Part shown: positions 11,097 to 35,025 of the stretch, piece after piece
Numbering within the stretch: the stretch's first letter is position 1
Layout: the number at the start of each line of letters is the position of its first letter
Assembly: GCA_038843675.1 (NCBI GenBank)
Contig: JAWBRV010000004.1
Coordinates: forward strand, 20,442-84,441
Source: Candidatus Bathyarchaeia archaeon
GTDB taxonomy: Archaea > Thermoproteota > Bathyarchaeia > 40CM-2-53-6 > CALIRQ01
Reading direction: 5' to 3'
Length of the DNA: 64,000 nucleotides
Notes under the pieces: generated by a model
Told to the model about the DNA's origin: nothing
The model's input: only the letters and a program-made list of their open reading frames with translations
Database searches by the model: none
Translations under genes and position numbers: made by a program

Positions 11097-11188
11097 GCGG
11101 CCGTAGTCCAGCCTGGTCTAAGACGCTGGCCTCCCATCGCTAGGGGAGCCAGCCAGTAACCCGGGTTCGAATCCCGGCGGCCGCACCA
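11097..11188 (+). tRNA. tRNA-Gly(CCC) with about 14-nt intron after position 37
   Basis: Acceptor GCGGCCG…CGGCCGC-A-CCA, T-arm CCGGG-TTCGAAT-CCCGG, anticodon loop CUCCCA|intron|A. Confidence 0.75.
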
Positions 11189-11294
11189 ATTTATATTCTC
11201 CACAGAATATTCCTCCGGAAGAATATTCCTAAACTTCACCGGCTCGGACGCGCCATTAAGGGATGAATCCCCTCCCCATATGGCGTCCGGATTC

Positions 11295-23542: not shown

Positions 23543-23986
23543 TTAGAGCAACCTGAAGTCCTCTTTCACGGTTGTCAATATGACATGCGTATTGGTCCTT
23601 TCCACGAAGGGCAGCGCTAAGAGGCCCTTGGTGAACTTGCTCAAGTCCTCCCTCTTCTTGAACTTGGCGATGACTATTGCGTCGACGTCGCCCGTCACAT
23701 CATAAACGGCGCAGGCGTTCGGGAGCTTCGCCACCTCCCTTTCGACCTCGAGCAATTTGCCCCTTGAAACCGTTAGCTCCGTTATGGCCGTCAATTGATA
23801 GCCCAACTTCTCATGGTCCAAGATGGCCGTATAGCCCTTTATCACCCCCTCCTTCTCCATCCTCCTGACCCTCGATAGGACCGTCCCGACGGAGCTCCCG
23901 ACCCTCTTGGCTATTTGCCTAAAGGAGAGCCTGGAATCCCTCAGGAGCTCGGCCAATATCTTCAAATCCAGATCGTCAAATTCCAT
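23543..23986 (-). CDS. lrp: Lrp/AsnC-family transcriptional regulator
   Basis: HTH (LSFRQIAKRVGSSVGTV) plus a RAM domain. Confidence 0.8.
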   Translation of the reverse strand: MEFDDLDLKILAELLRDSRLSFRQIAKRVGSSVGTVLSRVRRMEKEGVIKGYTAILDHEKLGYQLTAITELTVSRGKLLEVEREVAKLPNACAVYDVTGDVDAIVIAKFKKREDLSKFTKGLLALPFVERTNTHVILTTVKEDFRLL

Positions 23987-24071: not shown

Positions 24072-25049
24072 TCAGGGCAACGGGGGCGGCATCAGCCTCC
24101 TCTCCTCCGGACTCAGCCCCGCCCATTTGAGGAACTCCTCTGAGGGCCTCATGGTTCGATAGAGCTCCCGCCTCCTGCACTCCAATAGATTCCTCCCCTC
24201 CCCTATCAACTCGTTGGCCGTCATCACCACGTTCCCATTCGAGGCCGCGGCCTCGAGCGCGGGCCTCAAGCGCCCCTCCCAACCCCCATCCCTAAGGAGG
24301 TGGTGGTCGACCACAACCCTCGGCACCCTCCCGCAGATCGTCGCCAAGTTCCTCAGGCCCCTCTCGATCGAGGCCTCCCCCACGCCATACCCTGCCAAAT
24401 AAGTCGGCGGCCCCCCTATTATGAGGAGATCCGGGGCCTCCGATAGGATCGCCTCCATCGTGGAATCCGAAGATGGCCCTTGGACATCGGAGGCGAACAT
24501 GAGCTTCTGCGTATCGTATTCCACAGTGGCCATTAGGACCCATCCCAGCCGCCCCCCCTCCTCCCCATGCGGGACTGGCTTGGAGAACCTCAGGCGGGTG
24601 GAACCGAACTCGAAGGTCCTCCCATCAGCCACCTCCACCCTTTCGGCCACATCCTCTACGAACCCATGGAAGAGCCAGCCGCGCCTCCTCTGGCTGAAGT
24701 TTATCGAGTTCCTGAAGTCCTTGAGGTATACCTCCTTTCCCTCATATATCCGCTTGGATTCGTCCTCAGAGCTCCAAAGCCAAACGAAATCCGTGAAGTT
24801 GGGCGTGTAATGATCATGGTGATAATGGGATACGGTGATTATTTGGGCCCTCCTCGAAAATTCCCTTATCCTCTCCCTGCTGCGGCTGAGGGCCTCGTAC
24901 TCCAGCGGATGCGGCAACAGCGATTGCCTCGGCCCCAGCGCTGCCCCGGCGTCGATCAATATCCCCACATCCGGCGTTTCGACGAAGGTGCACATGGACC
25001 TGACCCCGAGGCTTTCGAAGGCTATGGGGAGCGCCCTTATCCCATCCAT
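24072..25049 (-). CDS. MBL-fold metallo-hydrolase
   Basis: HYHHDH motif. Likely start MDGIRALP with TATA TTTAAATTTTTATTT upstream (25066-25085). Confidence 0.65.
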   Translation of the reverse strand: MDGIRALPIAFESLGVRSMCTFVETPDVGILIDAGAALGPRQSLLPHPLEYEALSRSRERIREFSRRAQIITVSHYHHDHYTPNFTDFVWLWSSEDESKRIYEGKEVYLKDFRNSINFSQRRRGWLFHGFVEDVAERVEVADGRTFEFGSTRLRFSKPVPHGEEGGRLGWVLMATVEYDTQKLMFASDVQGPSSDSTMEAILSEAPDLLIIGGPPTYLAGYGVGEASIERGLRNLATICGRVPRVVVDHHLLRDGGWEGRLRPALEAAASNGNVVMTANELIGEGRNLLECRRRELYRTMRPSEEFLKWAGLSPEERRLMPPPLP

Positions 25050-25426
25050 CCCAAGGGATCTGGCCCAGGTTCGCTTTAAATTTTTATTTCGGCGCAACGA
25101 ACGATCATGAAGGTGGGCGATGACGAGTCTGGCCAGAATGAGCGCGGATGATTGGGATCTTGAGTGCGCAGGAGCTCACCCCAGATGAGGGCGGGCAAGG
25201 CGCCGCGTCCACGCCCCGCTCCTTAAAAATTCAGCCTCCCACCCGAAATGGGCCCATTTTAATCATTTTGGCCGAGATTTGATTCATTTGATTTCATTCA
25301 AGATTTCAAGATGGCCCTTTTCCGACCCTCCTCCATATGGGGGGCTACGGCGTTATAAAATTCAAGCGACGGGCAAGGGGACAATCCAAATTGCCGCCCA
25401 GCCCTCATTAACGCCCTTATTATTTA

Positions 25427-25500
25427 TTCCGAAAGGAATCATTAACACAGTATTATATTAATATTGGAATGAATGCCTTAACCAAGTTATTTGGGAGGTG
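25427..25500 (+). promoter_or_regulatory. Conserved leader element upstream of the thrC-like gene (box A and box B)
   Basis: Box A is near-identical at 28081-28104 and box B similar at 28103-28120, just upstream of the cysM-like gene. Confidence 0.45.
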
Positions 25501-25519
25501 ATGAGGGCTCATATCGGGT

Positions 25520-26743
25520 TTGAGGTGTAGGGAATGCGGATCGGAACATGAGCCGGCGAGGCTATCGGTCTGCCCGGATTGCCTCGGGCCCCTCGACGCT
25601 TTCTACGATTATGGGGGAGTGGATTGGAGCGAGACCTCATTATCGCGGAGGCCGAGGAGCCTTTGGAGATATCGCGAGCTATTGCCATTGCTGGACTACA
25701 GGAGGGCCGTGGACTTGGGCGCGGGCTTGACGCCTTTGCGGAGGGCCGATCGATTGGCGAGGGCCTTGGGCTTGAGGGAGGTATATCTAAAGGACGATAC
25801 GGTCAACCCGACTTATTCCTTCAAGGATCGGCCCGCATCGGTGGCCGTTTCCAAGGCCTTGGAGCTCGGGTACGGGGTCGTGGGCTGCGCCTCGACGGGC
25901 AATCTGGCGGCCGCCACGGCCGCCCACGCGGCCAAGGCGGGCCTCCCTTGCTACGTATTCATCCCCAAGGGCATAGAGGGGACCAAGATATCCCAGGCCA
26001 TAGCCTATGGCGCTAGAATCGTCCGCGTGAACGGGACCTACGACGAGGCGAACGCGGTGGCCTCGAGGGCCGCCGAGCGCTTCGGGTGGGCCCTCGTGAA
26101 CATAAACATAAGGCCTTACTATGTGGAGGGATCGAAGAGCTTGGCCTTCGAGGTATGCGAACAGCTCGGATGGGAGGCGCCGGATCACGTAATCGTCCCG
26201 ATCGGGAGCGGGGCCCTATTGAACGCCATAGCCAAGGGCTTCGGGGAGCTCAGGGATCTCGGCTTCATCGAGGGCCGCGGGCCCAAGATCTCGGGCGCCC
26301 AAGGCTTGGGCTGCTCACCGGTCGTCGATGCTTTCAAATCCGGGAGGGATTCCATCGAACCGGTTGAGGCCCCGAGCACCATAGCCAAGAGCCTCGCGAT
26401 AGGGGATCCGGGGGATGGCGTTTATGCCCTTCGCAGGATAAGGGAATCCGGGGGGTTCGCCGAAGCGCCATCCGATTCGGAGATAACCGAGGCCATAAGG
26501 CTTCTTGGGAGGACCGAGGGCCTCTTCACCGAGCCGGCCGGCGCGGTCACGGTGGCGGCTCTCAAGAGGCTTGTTTCCTCCGGGGCCATAGAAGGGGACG
26601 AGAGGGTCGTTTGCTATATCACCGGGAACGGGCTCAAGGCGCCGGAGGCGGTCGCGTCCTCGGAGGCCGACATCCTCGACATAAGCCCGGCCCTCGAGGG
26701 TCCTTGGGCCGAGGCCTTGGAGGTGGGAGCTTGGCGATCGTGA
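25520..26743 (+). CDS. Threonine-synthase-like PLP enzyme with N-terminal zinc ribbon (candidate O-phosphohomoserine-dependent homocysteine synthase, MetM-like)
   Basis: CRECG…CPDC ribbon and PLP-lysine motif SFKDR. TTG start. Confidence 0.7.
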   Translation: MRCRECGSEHEPARLSVCPDCLGPLDAFYDYGGVDWSETSLSRRPRSLWRYRELLPLLDYRRAVDLGAGLTPLRRADRLARALGLREVYLKDDTVNPTYSFKDRPASVAVSKALELGYGVVGCASTGNLAAATAAHAAKAGLPCYVFIPKGIEGTKISQAIAYGARIVRVNGTYDEANAVASRAAERFGWALVNINIRPYYVEGSKSLAFEVCEQLGWEAPDHVIVPIGSGALLNAIAKGFGELRDLGFIEGRGPKISGAQGLGCSPVVDAFKSGRDSIEPVEAPSTIAKSLAIGDPGDGVYALRRIRESGGFAEAPSDSEITEAIRLLGRTEGLFTEPAGAVTVAALKRLVSSGAIEGDERVVCYITGNGLKAPEAVASSEADILDISPALEGPWAEALEVGAWRS

Positions 26744-27012
26744 AGATCCTCTTTCCCCTGGCCCTTCAGAGGTTCACGGGCGGCAGGGGCGAGGTGCAGC
26801 TGGAGGCCTCAACCTTGCGGGAGGCCTTGGAGAAGCTGGCCGAGGAATTCGGAGATGACCTCGGGAAGAGGCTCTTCGATCCCAATGGCAACGCGAACCG
26901 CCTGCTGAACTTCTACATAAACGGCAGGAACGCCAAGTTCTCGGGCCTTTTGGAGGCAAGGCTTAGGGATGGCGATACGATCGCCATATTCCCAGCCGTG
27001 AGCGGGGGATGA
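26740..27012 (+). CDS. MoaD/ThiS-family sulfur-carrier protein (C-terminal Gly-Gly)
   Basis: 90 aa ending …AIFPAVSGG*. GTG start overlaps the thrC stop (GTGA). Confidence 0.7.
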   Translation: MKILFPLALQRFTGGRGEVQLEASTLREALEKLAEEFGDDLGKRLFDPNGNANRLLNFYINGRNAKFSGLLEARLRDGDTIAIFPAVSGG

Positions 27013-27016
27013 ACGG

Positions 27017-28099
27017 ATGGCGCCGTTCGATGCTGAGAGGTATTCGAGGCAGGTGGCCCTGAGGCTCATAGGCCCAAGAGGGCAGAGGAGGATAAGGGAG
27101 GGGAGGGTCGCGATCGCCGGCATCGGCGGCTTGGGCTCCATATCCGCCATCCAATTGGCCTCCATGGGGGTCGGTTACCTGCGCTTGGTCGATCACGACT
27201 TCGTGGAGCTCTCGAACCTCCAGAGGCAACCGCTCTATGATACCTACTCGCTTGGGGAGCCGAAGGTGGAGGTGGCCGAGAGGAGGCTGAGGGCCCTCAA
27301 CCCCGACGTCGAGATAGAGGCCCTGCCGCTGACGATATCCCGAGGCACGGCCGAGGAGGTGGTGAGGGATGTGGACGTAGTGGTCGATGGGCTCGATCGC
27401 CTCCTCCCAAGGTACGCCATAAACGAGGCGTGCAATGGGCTGGGCATCCCCTACGTATTCGGGAGCGCCATAGAGGCGCATGGCTCCGTGAGCACGATCG
27501 TGCCGGGCGAAACCGCTTGCTTGGGTTGCATCTTCGGCCCCGGCTCCGATGCCGATGAGGGATTGCCGACCTGCGATGCCGTTGGGGTCCTCCCGCCGAT
27601 ATTGAGCGCGGTGGCCAGCCTCCAAGTCAGGGAGGCCCTGTCCATCCTATTGGGCGAGAAGCCGAGCCTCGCTGGGAAGTTGCTCTTCTTGGACATCAGC
27701 GGCCCAGTGGATTTGAGGATCTTGGATGTGGAGCGATCCCCGAATTGTCCCCTATGCGGCAGCGCTCGCCGAACCGAGCCCAAAGGGCCTAGGCTGACGA
27801 GGCTCTGCGGCGGGGGCTTCATGATCGAGCCCGAGGGCAGGATCGAGCTGGATTTGGCGAGCGCGGCCCGTATCTTGGGGGATAGTTTTCGGATCAGGAT
27901 AGGTGCAAAATACGGCATTGTGCTCGAGGGCGATGGGGGAATCTCGATAAGCCTCACCAAGACCGGCAGCGCCCTCGTGAGGGGCGCGAGCGATGAGGCC
28001 GATGCCCTCAGGGCCTATGAGGAGCTGATGGTCTTGATCCGAGAGGGCGGCAAGAGGGCGGGACCCGGGGAATATCGATATTCCGAAAGGGATCATTAA
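27017..28099 (+). CDS. E1-like ThiF/MoeB/HesA-family adenylyltransferase with about 90-aa C-terminal extension
   Basis: GxGxxG (AGIGGLGS) and CxxC…CxxC zinc motif. Confidence 0.75.
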   Translation: MAPFDAERYSRQVALRLIGPRGQRRIREGRVAIAGIGGLGSISAIQLASMGVGYLRLVDHDFVELSNLQRQPLYDTYSLGEPKVEVAERRLRALNPDVEIEALPLTISRGTAEEVVRDVDVVVDGLDRLLPRYAINEACNGLGIPYVFGSAIEAHGSVSTIVPGETACLGCIFGPGSDADEGLPTCDAVGVLPPILSAVASLQVREALSILLGEKPSLAGKLLFLDISGPVDLRILDVERSPNCPLCGSARRTEPKGPRLTRLCGGGFMIEPEGRIELDLASAARILGDSFRIRIGAKYGIVLEGDGGISISLTKTGSALVRGASDEADALRAYEELMVLIREGGKRAGPGEYRYSERDH

Positions 28100-28120
28100 C
28101 AAAGTTATTTGGAGATGGTG
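28081..28120 (+). promoter_or_regulatory. Second copy of box A and box B with TATA-like AAGTTATTT
   Basis: ttccgaaagggatcattaacaaagttatttggagatggtg. Box A overlaps the last E1 codons (YSERDH*); ATG 28129 is about 20 nt downstream. Confidence 0.45.
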
Positions 28121-28128
28121 GATCGCGA

Positions 28129-29055
28129 ATGGGCGGGATCGTTGCCAAGGACATAACGGGACTGATAGGCAATACCCCAATGGTCCGCATCAACAAGCTG
28201 ACCGGCCGGGACGATGCGACGATATACGCCAAGCTGGAATGGTATAACATAGGTGGATCTGTGAAGGACAGGATGGCCCTATCCCTGATAGAGTATGCCG
28301 AGGCGGCCGGAAGGCTGGATAAGGGCAAGGCCATACTCGAGGCCACCTCTGGGAACACGGGCATAGCCTTGGCGATGATAGGGGCCGTCAAGGGATATAA
28401 GGTGATCATAGTCATGCCGGAGTCTGTTAGCGTCGAGAGGAGGTGCCTCATAAGCGCCTATGGGGCGGAGCTCATCCTATCGCCAGCCGAGAAGGGGACC
28501 GCCGGGGCCATAGAGCTCAAGCAGAGGCTCCTCAGGGAGGGGGGCGATCGTTACATCGACTTGGATCAGTTCAAGGACCCGGCCAATATACTGGCCCATT
28601 ACAAAACCACCGGCAAGGAGATATTGGAGCAAACGGGCGGGAGGCTCGACGCGATAGTGGTCGGGATCGGCACCGCTGGGACCGGCGTGGGCGTTTCCAT
28701 GCGGGTCAAGGGACATGACCCGGCCATCCGGATCATAGGGGTGACTCCCAAGCTCGGCGTCAGCATACAAGGGTTGAGGAACCCCGCCGAGCCCTATCCG
28801 ACACAGCTCTTCAGGAGGGAGCACTTCGATGAAATAGTGGAGATCTCCCAAGAGGAGGTCCCGAAGACCTTCGAGGTCGCTAGGGAGGTGGCTCGAAAGG
28901 AAGGGCTATTGATCGGGATGAGCTCCGCGGCGATAATGTACGTAGCTCTGAGGAAGGCGAGGGAGCTCGGCAAGGGGAAGGTCATAGTGGCGGTCCTCCC
29001 GGACGATGGGCTGAAATATCTGAGCACCCCGCTCTTCGGCTGGCCGCGATGTTGA
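28129..29055 (+). CDS. cysM: Cysteine synthase family PLP enzyme (CysM/CysK-like; candidate O-phosphoserine and thiocarboxylate dependent)
   Basis: PLP-lysine motif GGSVKDR plus TSGNTGIALA. Confidence 0.75.
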   Translation: MGGIVAKDITGLIGNTPMVRINKLTGRDDATIYAKLEWYNIGGSVKDRMALSLIEYAEAAGRLDKGKAILEATSGNTGIALAMIGAVKGYKVIIVMPESVSVERRCLISAYGAELILSPAEKGTAGAIELKQRLLREGGDRYIDLDQFKDPANILAHYKTTGKEILEQTGGRLDAIVVGIGTAGTGVGVSMRVKGHDPAIRIIGVTPKLGVSIQGLRNPAEPYPTQLFRREHFDEIVEISQEEVPKTFEVAREVARKEGLLIGMSSAAIMYVALRKARELGKGKVIVAVLPDDGLKYLSTPLFGWPRC

Positions 29056-29130
29056 CAGCCCCGCCCAAGCGACCATCACCGCTTCGATGAGGAATATTGA
29101 TATATCCATTCTCGTAATGGCCCCTTGTGA

Positions 29131-30192
29131 ATGTCGAATCAAGGGGCGGGAAGTGCGCTGATCCGCTTCGACCCGAATGAGTATTATAAGAGGCAGATCG
29201 CCCTTCGCGAGCTCGGCCGCGAGGGACAGGAGAGGCTGAGGCGATCTAAGGTCGCCGTCGTAGGGCTCGGGGGGTTGGGGAGCCCCGCCGCCACCTATTT
29301 GGCCTTGGCGGGAGTCGGCCATCTCCGCCTCATAGATCAGGATACGGTGGAGCTACACAACCTGCACAGGCAGACCCTGTATACGATCGATGAGCTAAGG
29401 TACCCGAAGGCCGAGGTGGCCGCGAAGAGAATAGCCAAGATGAACCCAGAAGTTAAGGTTGAGCCGATCTCAGAGAACCTGAGGAGGGGGAACGTGGATG
29501 CGATCCTAGAGGGCGTGGACTGCGTCGTAGATGGCTTGGATAATATGATGACCCGCTACATAGTCAACGAGGCATGCGTTAGGAAGGGCATCCCATACGT
29601 TTATGCCGCCGTGATAGGCTTCGAGGGTTGCCTCTCGGTCTTCAGGCCCCCGAGGACCCCCTGCCTAGCGTGCATATTCCCAAGCTTGGACGATCGAGGC
29701 CTCCCGAGCTGCGAAACGCGCGGGATCCTCGGCGCCACGGCCGGGATCGTGGGCGCGATGGAGGCGATGGAGGCCGTAAAGGTGCTCGCGGGGATCGATT
29801 CGATCGAGGGCCACCTCCTGATCTGCGATTTCATCGATATGTACATCTCCAAGGTCGACGTCTGGAGGAATCCGAAGTGCCCGGTCTGCGGGGAGGGTGG
29901 GCGAGGGGAGGGGATCGGCGCGCCGGAGAGGCTCGTTTGGCTATGCGGCCGGGATACGGTGAACGTGAACCCAAGGGAGCCCTTGGATTTGAGCATCGAG
30001 GAGATGCGCGATCGTTTGAGCGGGAAATTCAAGATCCTGCTCGGCTCGCCCTTCGTCATCGTCTTCGAGCGCGATGGGATCGAGGTCAGCTTGTTCAAGG
30101 GGGGGAGGATGCTCATGAGGAACGTGAAGGACGAGGAAGATGCGTTGAGGATCTACGAGGAGGTCATGGGATATCTAACGGGGAGGGGGTGA
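29131..30192 (+). CDS. Second E1-like ThiF/MoeB-family protein with homologous C-terminal extension
   Basis: VGLGGLGS, CLAC…CPVCG zinc motif, and a C-terminal 90 aa resembling that of the first E1. Confidence 0.75.
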   Translation: MSNQGAGSALIRFDPNEYYKRQIALRELGREGQERLRRSKVAVVGLGGLGSPAATYLALAGVGHLRLIDQDTVELHNLHRQTLYTIDELRYPKAEVAAKRIAKMNPEVKVEPISENLRRGNVDAILEGVDCVVDGLDNMMTRYIVNEACVRKGIPYVYAAVIGFEGCLSVFRPPRTPCLACIFPSLDDRGLPSCETRGILGATAGIVGAMEAMEAVKVLAGIDSIEGHLLICDFIDMYISKVDVWRNPKCPVCGEGGRGEGIGAPERLVWLCGRDTVNVNPREPLDLSIEEMRDRLSGKFKILLGSPFVIVFERDGIEVSLFKGGRMLMRNVKDEEDALRIYEEVMGYLTGRG

Positions 30193-34980: not shown

Positions 34981-34988
34981 GGCGTATG

Positions 34989-35025
34989 GGAATTTAATCC
35001 ACCCAATGATATGTTTAAATTCCCA
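34989..35025. repeat. 10-bp inverted repeat GGGAATTTAA-N16-TTAAATTCCC
   Basis: Perfect reverse-complement arms between arsC and the nitroreductase gene. Confidence 0.5.

Follow-up and report, generated by a model that had tools for sequence, protein, structure and literature searches.

We analysed a 64-kb stretch of DNA (hereafter the window, meaning the whole stretch) from a Candidatus Bathyarchaeia metagenome-assembled genome, in which an operon with the gene order ThrC-like, ThiS/MoaD-like, E1, CysM, E1 is preceded by a short palindrome, here called box A, that recurs in altered form before the CysM gene. Comparison with related loci makes it probable that box A is a putative DNA operator for a dimeric transcription factor and not an RNA control element. 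Box A site 1 (TATTCCGAAAGGAATC, 25425..25440) contains a 14-bp core inverted repeat, ATTCC-GAAA-GGAAT, at 25426-25439, which is the sole perfect ATTCC-N4-GGAAT in the window, and it is followed by a TATA-like box and by a second conserved element, box B, that carries a Shine-Dalgarno sequence. An earlier note on the same DNA had suggested that the two pyridoxal phosphate (PLP) enzyme genes of the operon share an operator, promoter or leader RNA; the operator or promoter part of this suggestion is supported by a palindrome kept at ThrC-like/ThiS promoters and by an intact copy before cysM in a related lineage, while the RNA part is not.

Box A at the promoters of ThrC-like genes

Relatives were assembled as 80 metagenome loci with ThrC-like genes at 48-64% identity, plus three from an exact-protein look-up, and motifs were counted in 81 non-identical ThrC-like upstream regions against a null of dinucleotide shuffles. 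Exact ATTC-N6-GAAT occurs upstream of the ThrC-like start in 15 of these regions (shuffles: mean 0.41, maximum 3), and the stricter ATTCC-N4-GGAAT in six (0.017 expected). The position of ATTC-N6-GAAT is narrowly constrained, with distances to the start of 68-132 nt in 14 regions and of 161 nt in the remaining one (L096). Across the ~596 kb of loci, all non-coding perfect ATTCC-N4-GGAAT sites lie upstream of ThrC-like genes, and the remaining perfect matches fall at codon ~147 within the ThrC-like gene itself. Separately, three regions (L040, L042, and L045) carry ATTAC-N5-GTAAT at the box A position upstream of their ThrC-like genes (3/81 versus 0.03 expected), which suggests a regulator variant of altered specificity.

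The genus of the window was split by E1 and CysM identities into four lineages, namely A (the window, L121, and L036), B (L122), C (L123), and D (L009-L017 and L034). Of 17 aligned sites from these and other lineages, 15 have ATTC and GAAT without change and two, the cysM copies of lineage A, deviate at one position each; the spacer between ATTC and GAAT is always 6 nt long and free in sequence (i.e., a dyad with conserved half-sites). For example, the inner four bases read GAAA, AAGA, TAAA, AAAG, TTAC, ATTT, TAAC, GTTT, AATA, or TTTT across lineages, and within the genus the spacer changes from CGAAAG (A) to CTAAAA (B) and CAAGAA (D) with invariant half-sites. The ThrC-like gene is under purifying selection between lineages (dN/dS 0.09-0.13, i.e., about 0.1, for the ratio of nonsynonymous to synonymous divergence), and its synonymous divergence (dS 0.48-0.62) is such that unconstrained intergenic DNA is expected to be poorly alignable. 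Between lineages A and D, the distal intergenic DNA is not alignable; the sequences become well alignable at TATTCC, where box A begins on its 5′ side, and stay so up to the start codon. Box A is in these respects a promoter-specific, position-fixed motif at orthologous genes across lineages, as would be expected of an operator.

Downstream of site 1, a TATA-like box (TATTATATTAATATT) overlaps a weaker second site, ATTAATATTGGAAT (25457-25470), the two together spanning 25451..25470 on the plus strand, and the second site begins 31 nt past site 1. Three lineages of the genus share a 19-nt stretch, ATTATATTAATATTGGAAT, without any change, and the distant locus L039 has a near-identical counterpart, ATATTAATTTTGGAAT; GGAGGTGATGAGG is also invariant within the genus alignment. 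Fourteen loci were read for this arrangement, and 11 have an AT-rich TATA-like box at +31 from the start of site 1 (L049, L057, and L096 are without), often with GGAAT directly after it. The GAAT right half-site is enriched at offset +31 (six loci), with others at 30, 32, 33, -30 or -31, and the second site stands at 31 ± 1 bp in 9 of the 14 loci, which together with the 14-bp length of the site reproduces the geometry of Lrp/AsnC-type clusters (PMC2995911). Further downstream, box B (AAGTTATTTGGGAGGTG, 25484..25500, plus strand) contains the Shine-Dalgarno sequence GGGAGGTG at 25493-25500. Its pattern, GTTAT(A/T)..GGAGGTG, was found upstream of ThrC-like genes in L039, L040, L042, L043, L044, and the sister species, and box B (GTTAT(A/T)GGAGGTG) lies about 15-17 nt past the TATA-like box/GGAAT. 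It starts about 25 nt 3′ of the TATA-like box, which would fit general archaeal promoter geometry, and we infer that box B represents the transcription-start region or 5′ untranslated region together with the Shine-Dalgarno sequence.

Together, these features suggest a DNA site bound by a protein dimer: the invariant half-sites are one helical turn apart, the spacer keeps its length while its sequence is free, and the TATA-like box stands at a fixed distance. In the mechanism that we propose, a dimeric, probably helix-turn-helix factor would bind (T)ATTCC-N4-GGAAT(A), the centre of which lies about 52 nt before the operon start, and in most lineages would also bind a weaker second site three helical turns (31 bp) downstream, of which the left half would be the TATA-like box and the right half GGAAT. 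Cooperative occupation of site 1 (about -52) and site 2 (about -21) would then control the access of TBP/TFB to the promoter. Repression in response to a sulfur amino-acid end product is slightly favoured as the outcome, since site 2 overlaps a TATA-like box that looks strong, and activation from the upstream site would be the alternative.

The copy of box A before cysM

Box A is present twice in the window, at 25425-25451 and 28079-28105, with identity at 25 of 27 positions, and its 21-nt core has only these two matches in the 64 kb (two matches were obtained in 0/100 shuffles). Copy 1 minus 36 nt equals copy 2 at 33 of 34 contiguous bases, TATTCCGAAAGG[A/G]ATCATTAACAAAGTTATTTGG, and the 36 extra nucleotides of copy 1 are flanked by the direct repeats TTAACACAGT (25442) and TTAACCAAGT (25478). 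After this 36-nt gap, box B is common to both copies at 11/11 bases (AAGTTATTTGG), beyond which the copies are only loosely alike. The repeat of box A and box B upstream of the thrC-like and cysM-like genes that the earlier note had described is therefore real, and so is its remark that the second copy overlaps the stop region of the first E1, given that the TAA at 28097-28099 lies inside ATCATTAAC of copy 2. Copy 2 (28079..28112, plus strand) consists of box A′, ATTCC-GAAA-GGGAT at 28080-28093, fused to the box B core, with the TATA segment absent; its right half-site reads GGGAT, a change at a GAAT base to which the other 15 sites hold without exception. Of the species assemblies compared, 6/6 are identical over the copy-2 region and 4/4 over the copy-1 region. 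Copy 2 holds the variants of lineage A (spacer GAAAG, ATCATTAAC, and AAGTTATTTGG) and not those of lineages B or D, which indicates recent duplication or gene conversion from the thrC promoter. Judged from these variants, the near-identity of the two window copies is a matter of recent paralogy or gene conversion, not of independent conservation.

The E1-cysM junction differs among the lineages of the genus. In lineage C, L123 carries an intact box A (catATTCCAAAAAGAATtattaacaca, ATTCCAAAAAGAAT), and a TATA-like box follows about 25 nt before the cysM ATG. Within lineage D, the junction of L016 is L123-like with box A absent, leaving a TATA-only spacer, and L009-14 and L034 have no spacer at all, the genes being 3 nt apart. 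Lineage B (L122) retains a remnant (CCCGAAAG) and a TATA-like box. Finally, in lineage A, L121 has a longer copy 2 with TATA-like ATTATTAATATTTAAG and the box B core, and the window has the same arrangement minus that ~23-nt segment. Since L121, L122, and L123 show intermediate and independent states, an account of copy 2 as one recent duplication with a single 36-nt deletion was revised. A box-A-bearing internal cysM promoter is, by this comparison, a recurring and probably ancestral feature of the genus, and its recurrence supports a control element common to both PLP-enzyme genes.

We suggest that the genus would have had, ancestrally or repeatedly, an internal promoter with box A in the E1-cysM spacer, that in the lineage of the window this spacer would have been overwritten by, or duplicated from, the thrC promoter, and that the window strain would then have lost the TATA-containing segment and one invariant half-site base, leaving copy 2 mainly to supply a spacer and a ribosome-binding region. 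With no TATA-like box and a mutated half-site, copy 2 is regarded as a decaying operator, and read-through from the thrC promoter would most likely account for most of the cysM expression in the window. Across the genus, an internal promoter can be followed through a natural series of decay, from intact to mutated, TATA-deleted, and fully deleted. The upstream gene is involved as well: the last ~10 codons of the first E1 (..EYRYSERDH*) are encoded by copy-2 sequence, and the protein has 360 aa versus 347-350 aa in lineages C and D, with C-terminal tails that vary between lineages. These extra ~10 codons are a by-product. A perfect 16-nt palindrome, GGAATATCGATATTCC (28069..28084, plus strand), has its right arm in common with the box A of copy 2 and is predicted to form a hairpin; in L121, both palindrome arms are altered together, giving GGGATATCGATATCCC. 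Separately, the AT-rich spacer between cysM and the second E1 contains at 29089-29110 the sequence GGAATATTGATATATCCATTC, which resembles the left palindrome GGAATATCGATATTCC, is kept in L121 and L123, and may be another internal promoter or a structured spacer.

RNA structure, candidate regulator and other explanations

Box A might instead act as RNA, either as a hairpin AUUCC-GAAA-GGAAU with a GNRA loop in a thrC leader or, at copy 2, in two mutually exclusive E1-cysM hairpins (GGAAUAUCGAUAUUCC versus AUUCC-GAAA-GGGAU) that would govern the translation of cysM or the processing or stability of the RNA. Being internal to the operon, copy 2 is transcribed, the loop reads GAAA in lineage A, and from the window to L121 the arms change from GGAAT/ATTCC/GGGAT to GGGAT/ATCCC/GGGAT via a U.G intermediate (the window), both hairpins being kept. 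This compensatory change is a single event, however, in a junction where L123 has no left arm, and template-switch mutation in quasi-palindromes can also yield such changes. For the leader 25395-25525, the predicted fold is better than those of shuffled sequences (z = -2.75) and includes a long-range helix of 9 bp, 25400-08/25501-09, that is significant in the window, but the upstream arm is not kept in lineages B or D and the helix was rejected as a conserved structure. Nor is the loop GNRA in other lineages, and a 4-5-bp AU-rich stem is weak; the host may also live at high temperature. Across the 17 sites, three pairs of the putative box A hairpin never vary and the inner and outer pairs are non-canonical, the fifth and sixth being unpaired, in 7-8 sequences; the covariation score was reached by 55/500 shuffles, so that the covariation analysis called for in the earlier note gives the hairpin no signal above shuffles. 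Rfam at gathering thresholds returned only a tRNA over the whole window, and at E up to 10 it returned only chance-level matches over 25000-25600 (best E = 0.42). The constant distance of box A upstream of a conserved TATA-like box would further argue against its lying in a transcribed leader. S-box- or T-box-like RNA control, to which the earlier note had likened the element, thus finds neither an Rfam family nor covariation here, and we consider an RNA role for box A to be improbable.

A related possibility concerns translation and arises from the odd way in which the ThrC-like gene begins. The N-terminus of most homologues is M-[GS]-[YF]-[VI]-K-G-L-R-C, the first Cys lying eight codons after the ATG. 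In the window, this homologous start position reads TGA, and the ancestral ATG lies one base earlier and out of frame (ATG-A-GGG; 25501..25530, plus strand), where it opens a 9-codon open reading frame (ORF), MRAHIGFEV*, overlapping the annotated TTG at 25520. The same out-of-frame ATG follows right after the Shine-Dalgarno sequence in lineages A, B, and D (GGAGGTG-ATG-A-GGG-CTC-ATA...), and no lineage-C sequence spans the start. The only canonical in-frame start remaining is the TTG two codons before the Cys, and the in-frame codons upstream of it (G-L-I-S-G) resemble the ancestral N-terminus. Other lineages are also without a canonical in-frame start: L043 reads GTG-TAA, L040 reads ATG-TAA and then ATC, L042 has an out-of-frame ATG, and L050, L066, and L067 have none. 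Hence, the operon might be controlled post-transcriptionally, with the ThrC-like protein started by +1 frameshifting, by AUA/AUC/AUU initiation, or by re-initiation coupled to the upstream ORF, and with two mutually exclusive E1-cysM hairpins kept by compensation; we give this little credence.

As to which protein might bind box A, the neighbouring Lrp/AsnC gene (23543-23986, minus strand), which the earlier note had named for a binding assay, keeps its place two genes before thrC in every lineage of the genus whose contig reaches the region (A, B, and D; that of L123, lineage C, ends short of it), and its family commonly regulates archaeal amino-acid biosynthesis on phased 13-17-bp inverted repeats (PMC2995911). 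Its own promoter in the window holds ATTCGTTAAACGAAT, i.e., ATTC-N7-GAAT, but this possible autoregulatory palindrome differs from box A in spacing, is not kept in L036 or the sister species, and was rejected. Moreover, outside the genus, the box-A-positive loci showed no Lrp/AsnC homologue within about 4 kb of their ThrC-like genes, and no conserved neighbouring regulator gene was found among the box-A-positive loci. The Lrp/AsnC protein is a weak candidate, put forward by family membership, and we doubt that it is the box A regulator.

Box A could also have no dedicated regulatory role, being a generic promoter element or a neutral relic whose copies are alike through recent duplication or gene conversion at a recombination-prone junction. 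Such an explanation would accommodate a copy 2 that is lineage-specific in detail, without a TATA box and mutated in a half-site, a junction that differs per lineage (a 3-nt gap in L009-14, TATA-only in L016, a remnant in L122), and the finding of no other targets in the 64-kb window or in a scan of a genome collection with an over-specific pattern. It would leave unexplained the intact pre-cysM copy of L123 and a palindrome with invariant half-sites and a variable spacer at the same distance from the TATA-like box of ThrC-like operons in lineages of 55-64% protein identity, and it seems to us quite unlikely.

Several observations nevertheless weigh against box A as a DNA operator. The motif is missing from 66 of the 81 relatives, three of which carry the ATTAC-N5-GTAAT palindrome in its place, and the second site is absent in some lineages (e.g., L037, L053, and L067). 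The role of the TATA-like box and the start site are assigned from geometry, and a further TATA-like sequence, TTATAAAA at 25352, is kept in lineages A and B and could give a longer leader containing box A. The compensatory arm change in copy 2 of L121 points to base pairing, not protein recognition, at that place. Outside the genus, neither the distant loci that were fetched nor the one cysM locus examined in another Bathyarchaeia genus showed a box A before cysM. As for a wider regulon, the search of the genome and its relatives proposed in the earlier note did reveal copies at ThrC-like promoters and at the cysM of L123; it revealed no other targets in the window, and no further box A in the genus loci beyond thrC and (lineages A and C) cysM. 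Matches to ATTCCNNNNGGAAT at <=2 mismatches in the 64-kb window numbered 32 versus 54 expected. The genome-collection scan with ATTCCRARARGRATMATTAAC, which gave 19 matches versus a rough random estimate of about 17 and was set aside, used a pattern too specific for diverged sites; its relevant matches were the thrC promoters of two genus representatives, and the others, in unrelated genomes, were taken as chance. Within the AT-rich islands of the window, GGAAT/ATTCC half-sites showed only modest enrichment at operon junctions, and a bacterial promoter/terminator scan was uninformative, the host being an archaeon.

The operon, its flanks and known systems

The operon begins with the ThrC-like PLP enzyme (25520-26743, plus strand; Pfam PALP), which bears a zinc ribbon at its N-terminus and for which threonine synthase models of NCBIfam exceed their cut-offs. 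It is followed on the same strand by a ThiS/MoaD-like sulfur-carrier protein (26740-27012; Pfam ThiS, NCBIfam moaD_arch and SAMP1), the first E1, of ThiF/MoeB type (27017-28099; Pfam ThiF), a CysM/CysK-family cysteine synthase (28129-29055; Pfam PALP, with NCBIfam cysKM and cysM below cut-offs), and the second E1 (29131-30192). In 13/13 box-A-positive loci examined in detail, a ThiS/MoaD-like gene follows the ThrC-like gene, usually together with an E1 gene. In the MetM/MetO thiocarboxylate route, O-phosphohomoserine is converted to homocysteine, and MetM is frequently annotated as threonine synthase (10.1101/2024.10.14.618325). Judged from its gene neighbourhood, the ThrC-like protein may be a candidate MetM-type homocysteine synthase.

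Upstream, a 470-nt intergenic region (25050-25519) separates the ThrC-like gene from a divergent gene for an uncharacterised conserved protein (24072-25049, minus strand; weak sub-threshold MBL-fold match). The earlier note had read most of this interval as an AT-rich leader of about 430 nt with tandem repeats, a description that does not hold: its GC content is 0.49 over 25086-25520 and 0.60 over 25086-25250, against 0.586 for the window, falling to 0.387 only in the last ~125 nt, and the interval lies between divergent genes with no sign of transcription as a leader. The repeats placed at ~25265-25305 correspond to short imperfect units, ATTTGATTTC and TTCAAGAT, at 25277..25312, which Tandem Repeats Finder scores weakly (2.3 copies of a 9-10-nt unit, score 37, and 2.0 copies of an 8-nt unit, score 32) and which are not conserved among relatives, there being one extra unit in L036, diverged repeats in L122 (lineage B), and none in the sister species (lineage D). 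On present evidence, neither the tandem repeats nor the "leader" is a functional unit.

Other sites were observed in and beyond this region. A TATA-like sequence at 25350-25359 (GTTATAAAAT) is shared by lineages A and B (L122: GCTATAAAAC) but not by D; it could start a transcript on either strand, and one on the plus strand would contain box A. Further upstream, a 69-nt block (25113-25181) with about 90% identity among lineages A, B, and D stands between flanks that are not alignable. Its ends can pair in a 7-bp stem, GGTGGGC...GCTCACC, in which a G.U pair is replaced by A-U, and it contains GAUGA/UGAG motifs; Rfam gave only weak C/D-box small RNA-like matches for it (sR38, E = 0.42), with a non-canonical spacing of the boxes. 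The block might encode a small RNA that has escaped annotation, or else be bound by a protein. Elsewhere in the window, ATATTCTCCACAGAATATTCCTCCGGAAGAATATTCC at 11189-11232, directly 3′ of the tRNA gene at 11097-11188 and with short minus-strand ORFs nearby, contains an exact ATTC-N6-GAAT and two GAATATTCC repeats, and may be a terminator structure or an unrelated site. An inverted repeat at 34988-35024, GGGAATTTAA-N17-TTAAATTCCC, occupies an AT-rich spacer between ORFs and is unrelated to box A.

To our knowledge, the regulation of archaeal sulfur amino-acid synthesis is essentially uncharacterised, notably in uncultured Bathyarchaeia, and our literature search on the subject found no paper. 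Box A would offer a comparatively predicted operator of known type, giving a handle for finding its regulator by DNA-affinity capture or electrophoretic mobility shift assay, and its motif can be used for regulon mapping in metagenome-assembled genomes.

Several known systems resemble parts of what is described here. In the MetM/MetO pathway of Streptomyces and in CysO/CysM-type cysteine synthesis, as in the window, a ThrC homologue stands beside a ThiS/MoaD-like carrier, an E1 (MoeZ-like), and CysM; this likeness covers the regulated genes and not box A, and NCBIfam calls the window protein threonine synthase. Bacterial S-box (SAM-I) and T-box elements serve the same purpose, end-product control of sulfur amino-acid genes, but are structured RNAs in transcribed leaders with strong covariation, whereas box A has neither an Rfam match nor covariation and lies upstream of the TATA-like box. 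The NrpR operators of methanogen nitrogen genes, GGAA-N6-TTCC sites of a metabolite-responsive repressor, share with box A a GGAA/TTCC inverted repeat, and NrpR has two cooperative operators per promoter. The half-sites of box A face the opposite way at other spacing (TTCC-N4-GGAA), however, its strong site is upstream and not downstream of the TATA-like box, and pathway and phylum differ.

The archaeal Lrp/FFRP proteins provide a further comparison. Their characterised sites are 13-bp (5-3-5) or 15-bp (5-5-5) repeats with an AT-rich centre, from which box A differs by its ATTCC half-site and 5-4-5 geometry, and an Lrp gene is adjacent to box A only in this genus. Clusters of imperfect inverted repeats, 13-17 bp long and phased by helical turns, are bound by archaeal Lrp-type and other regulators (PMC2995911). 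The operator clusters of LysM at the lysW promoter, Ss-LrpB, and FL11 are thus like box A in being 13-17-bp inverted repeats phased by helical turns, in lying at or upstream of the TFB-recognition element (BRE)/TATA, and in serving the control of amino-acid biosynthesis (PMC2995911; see also PMC3597687).

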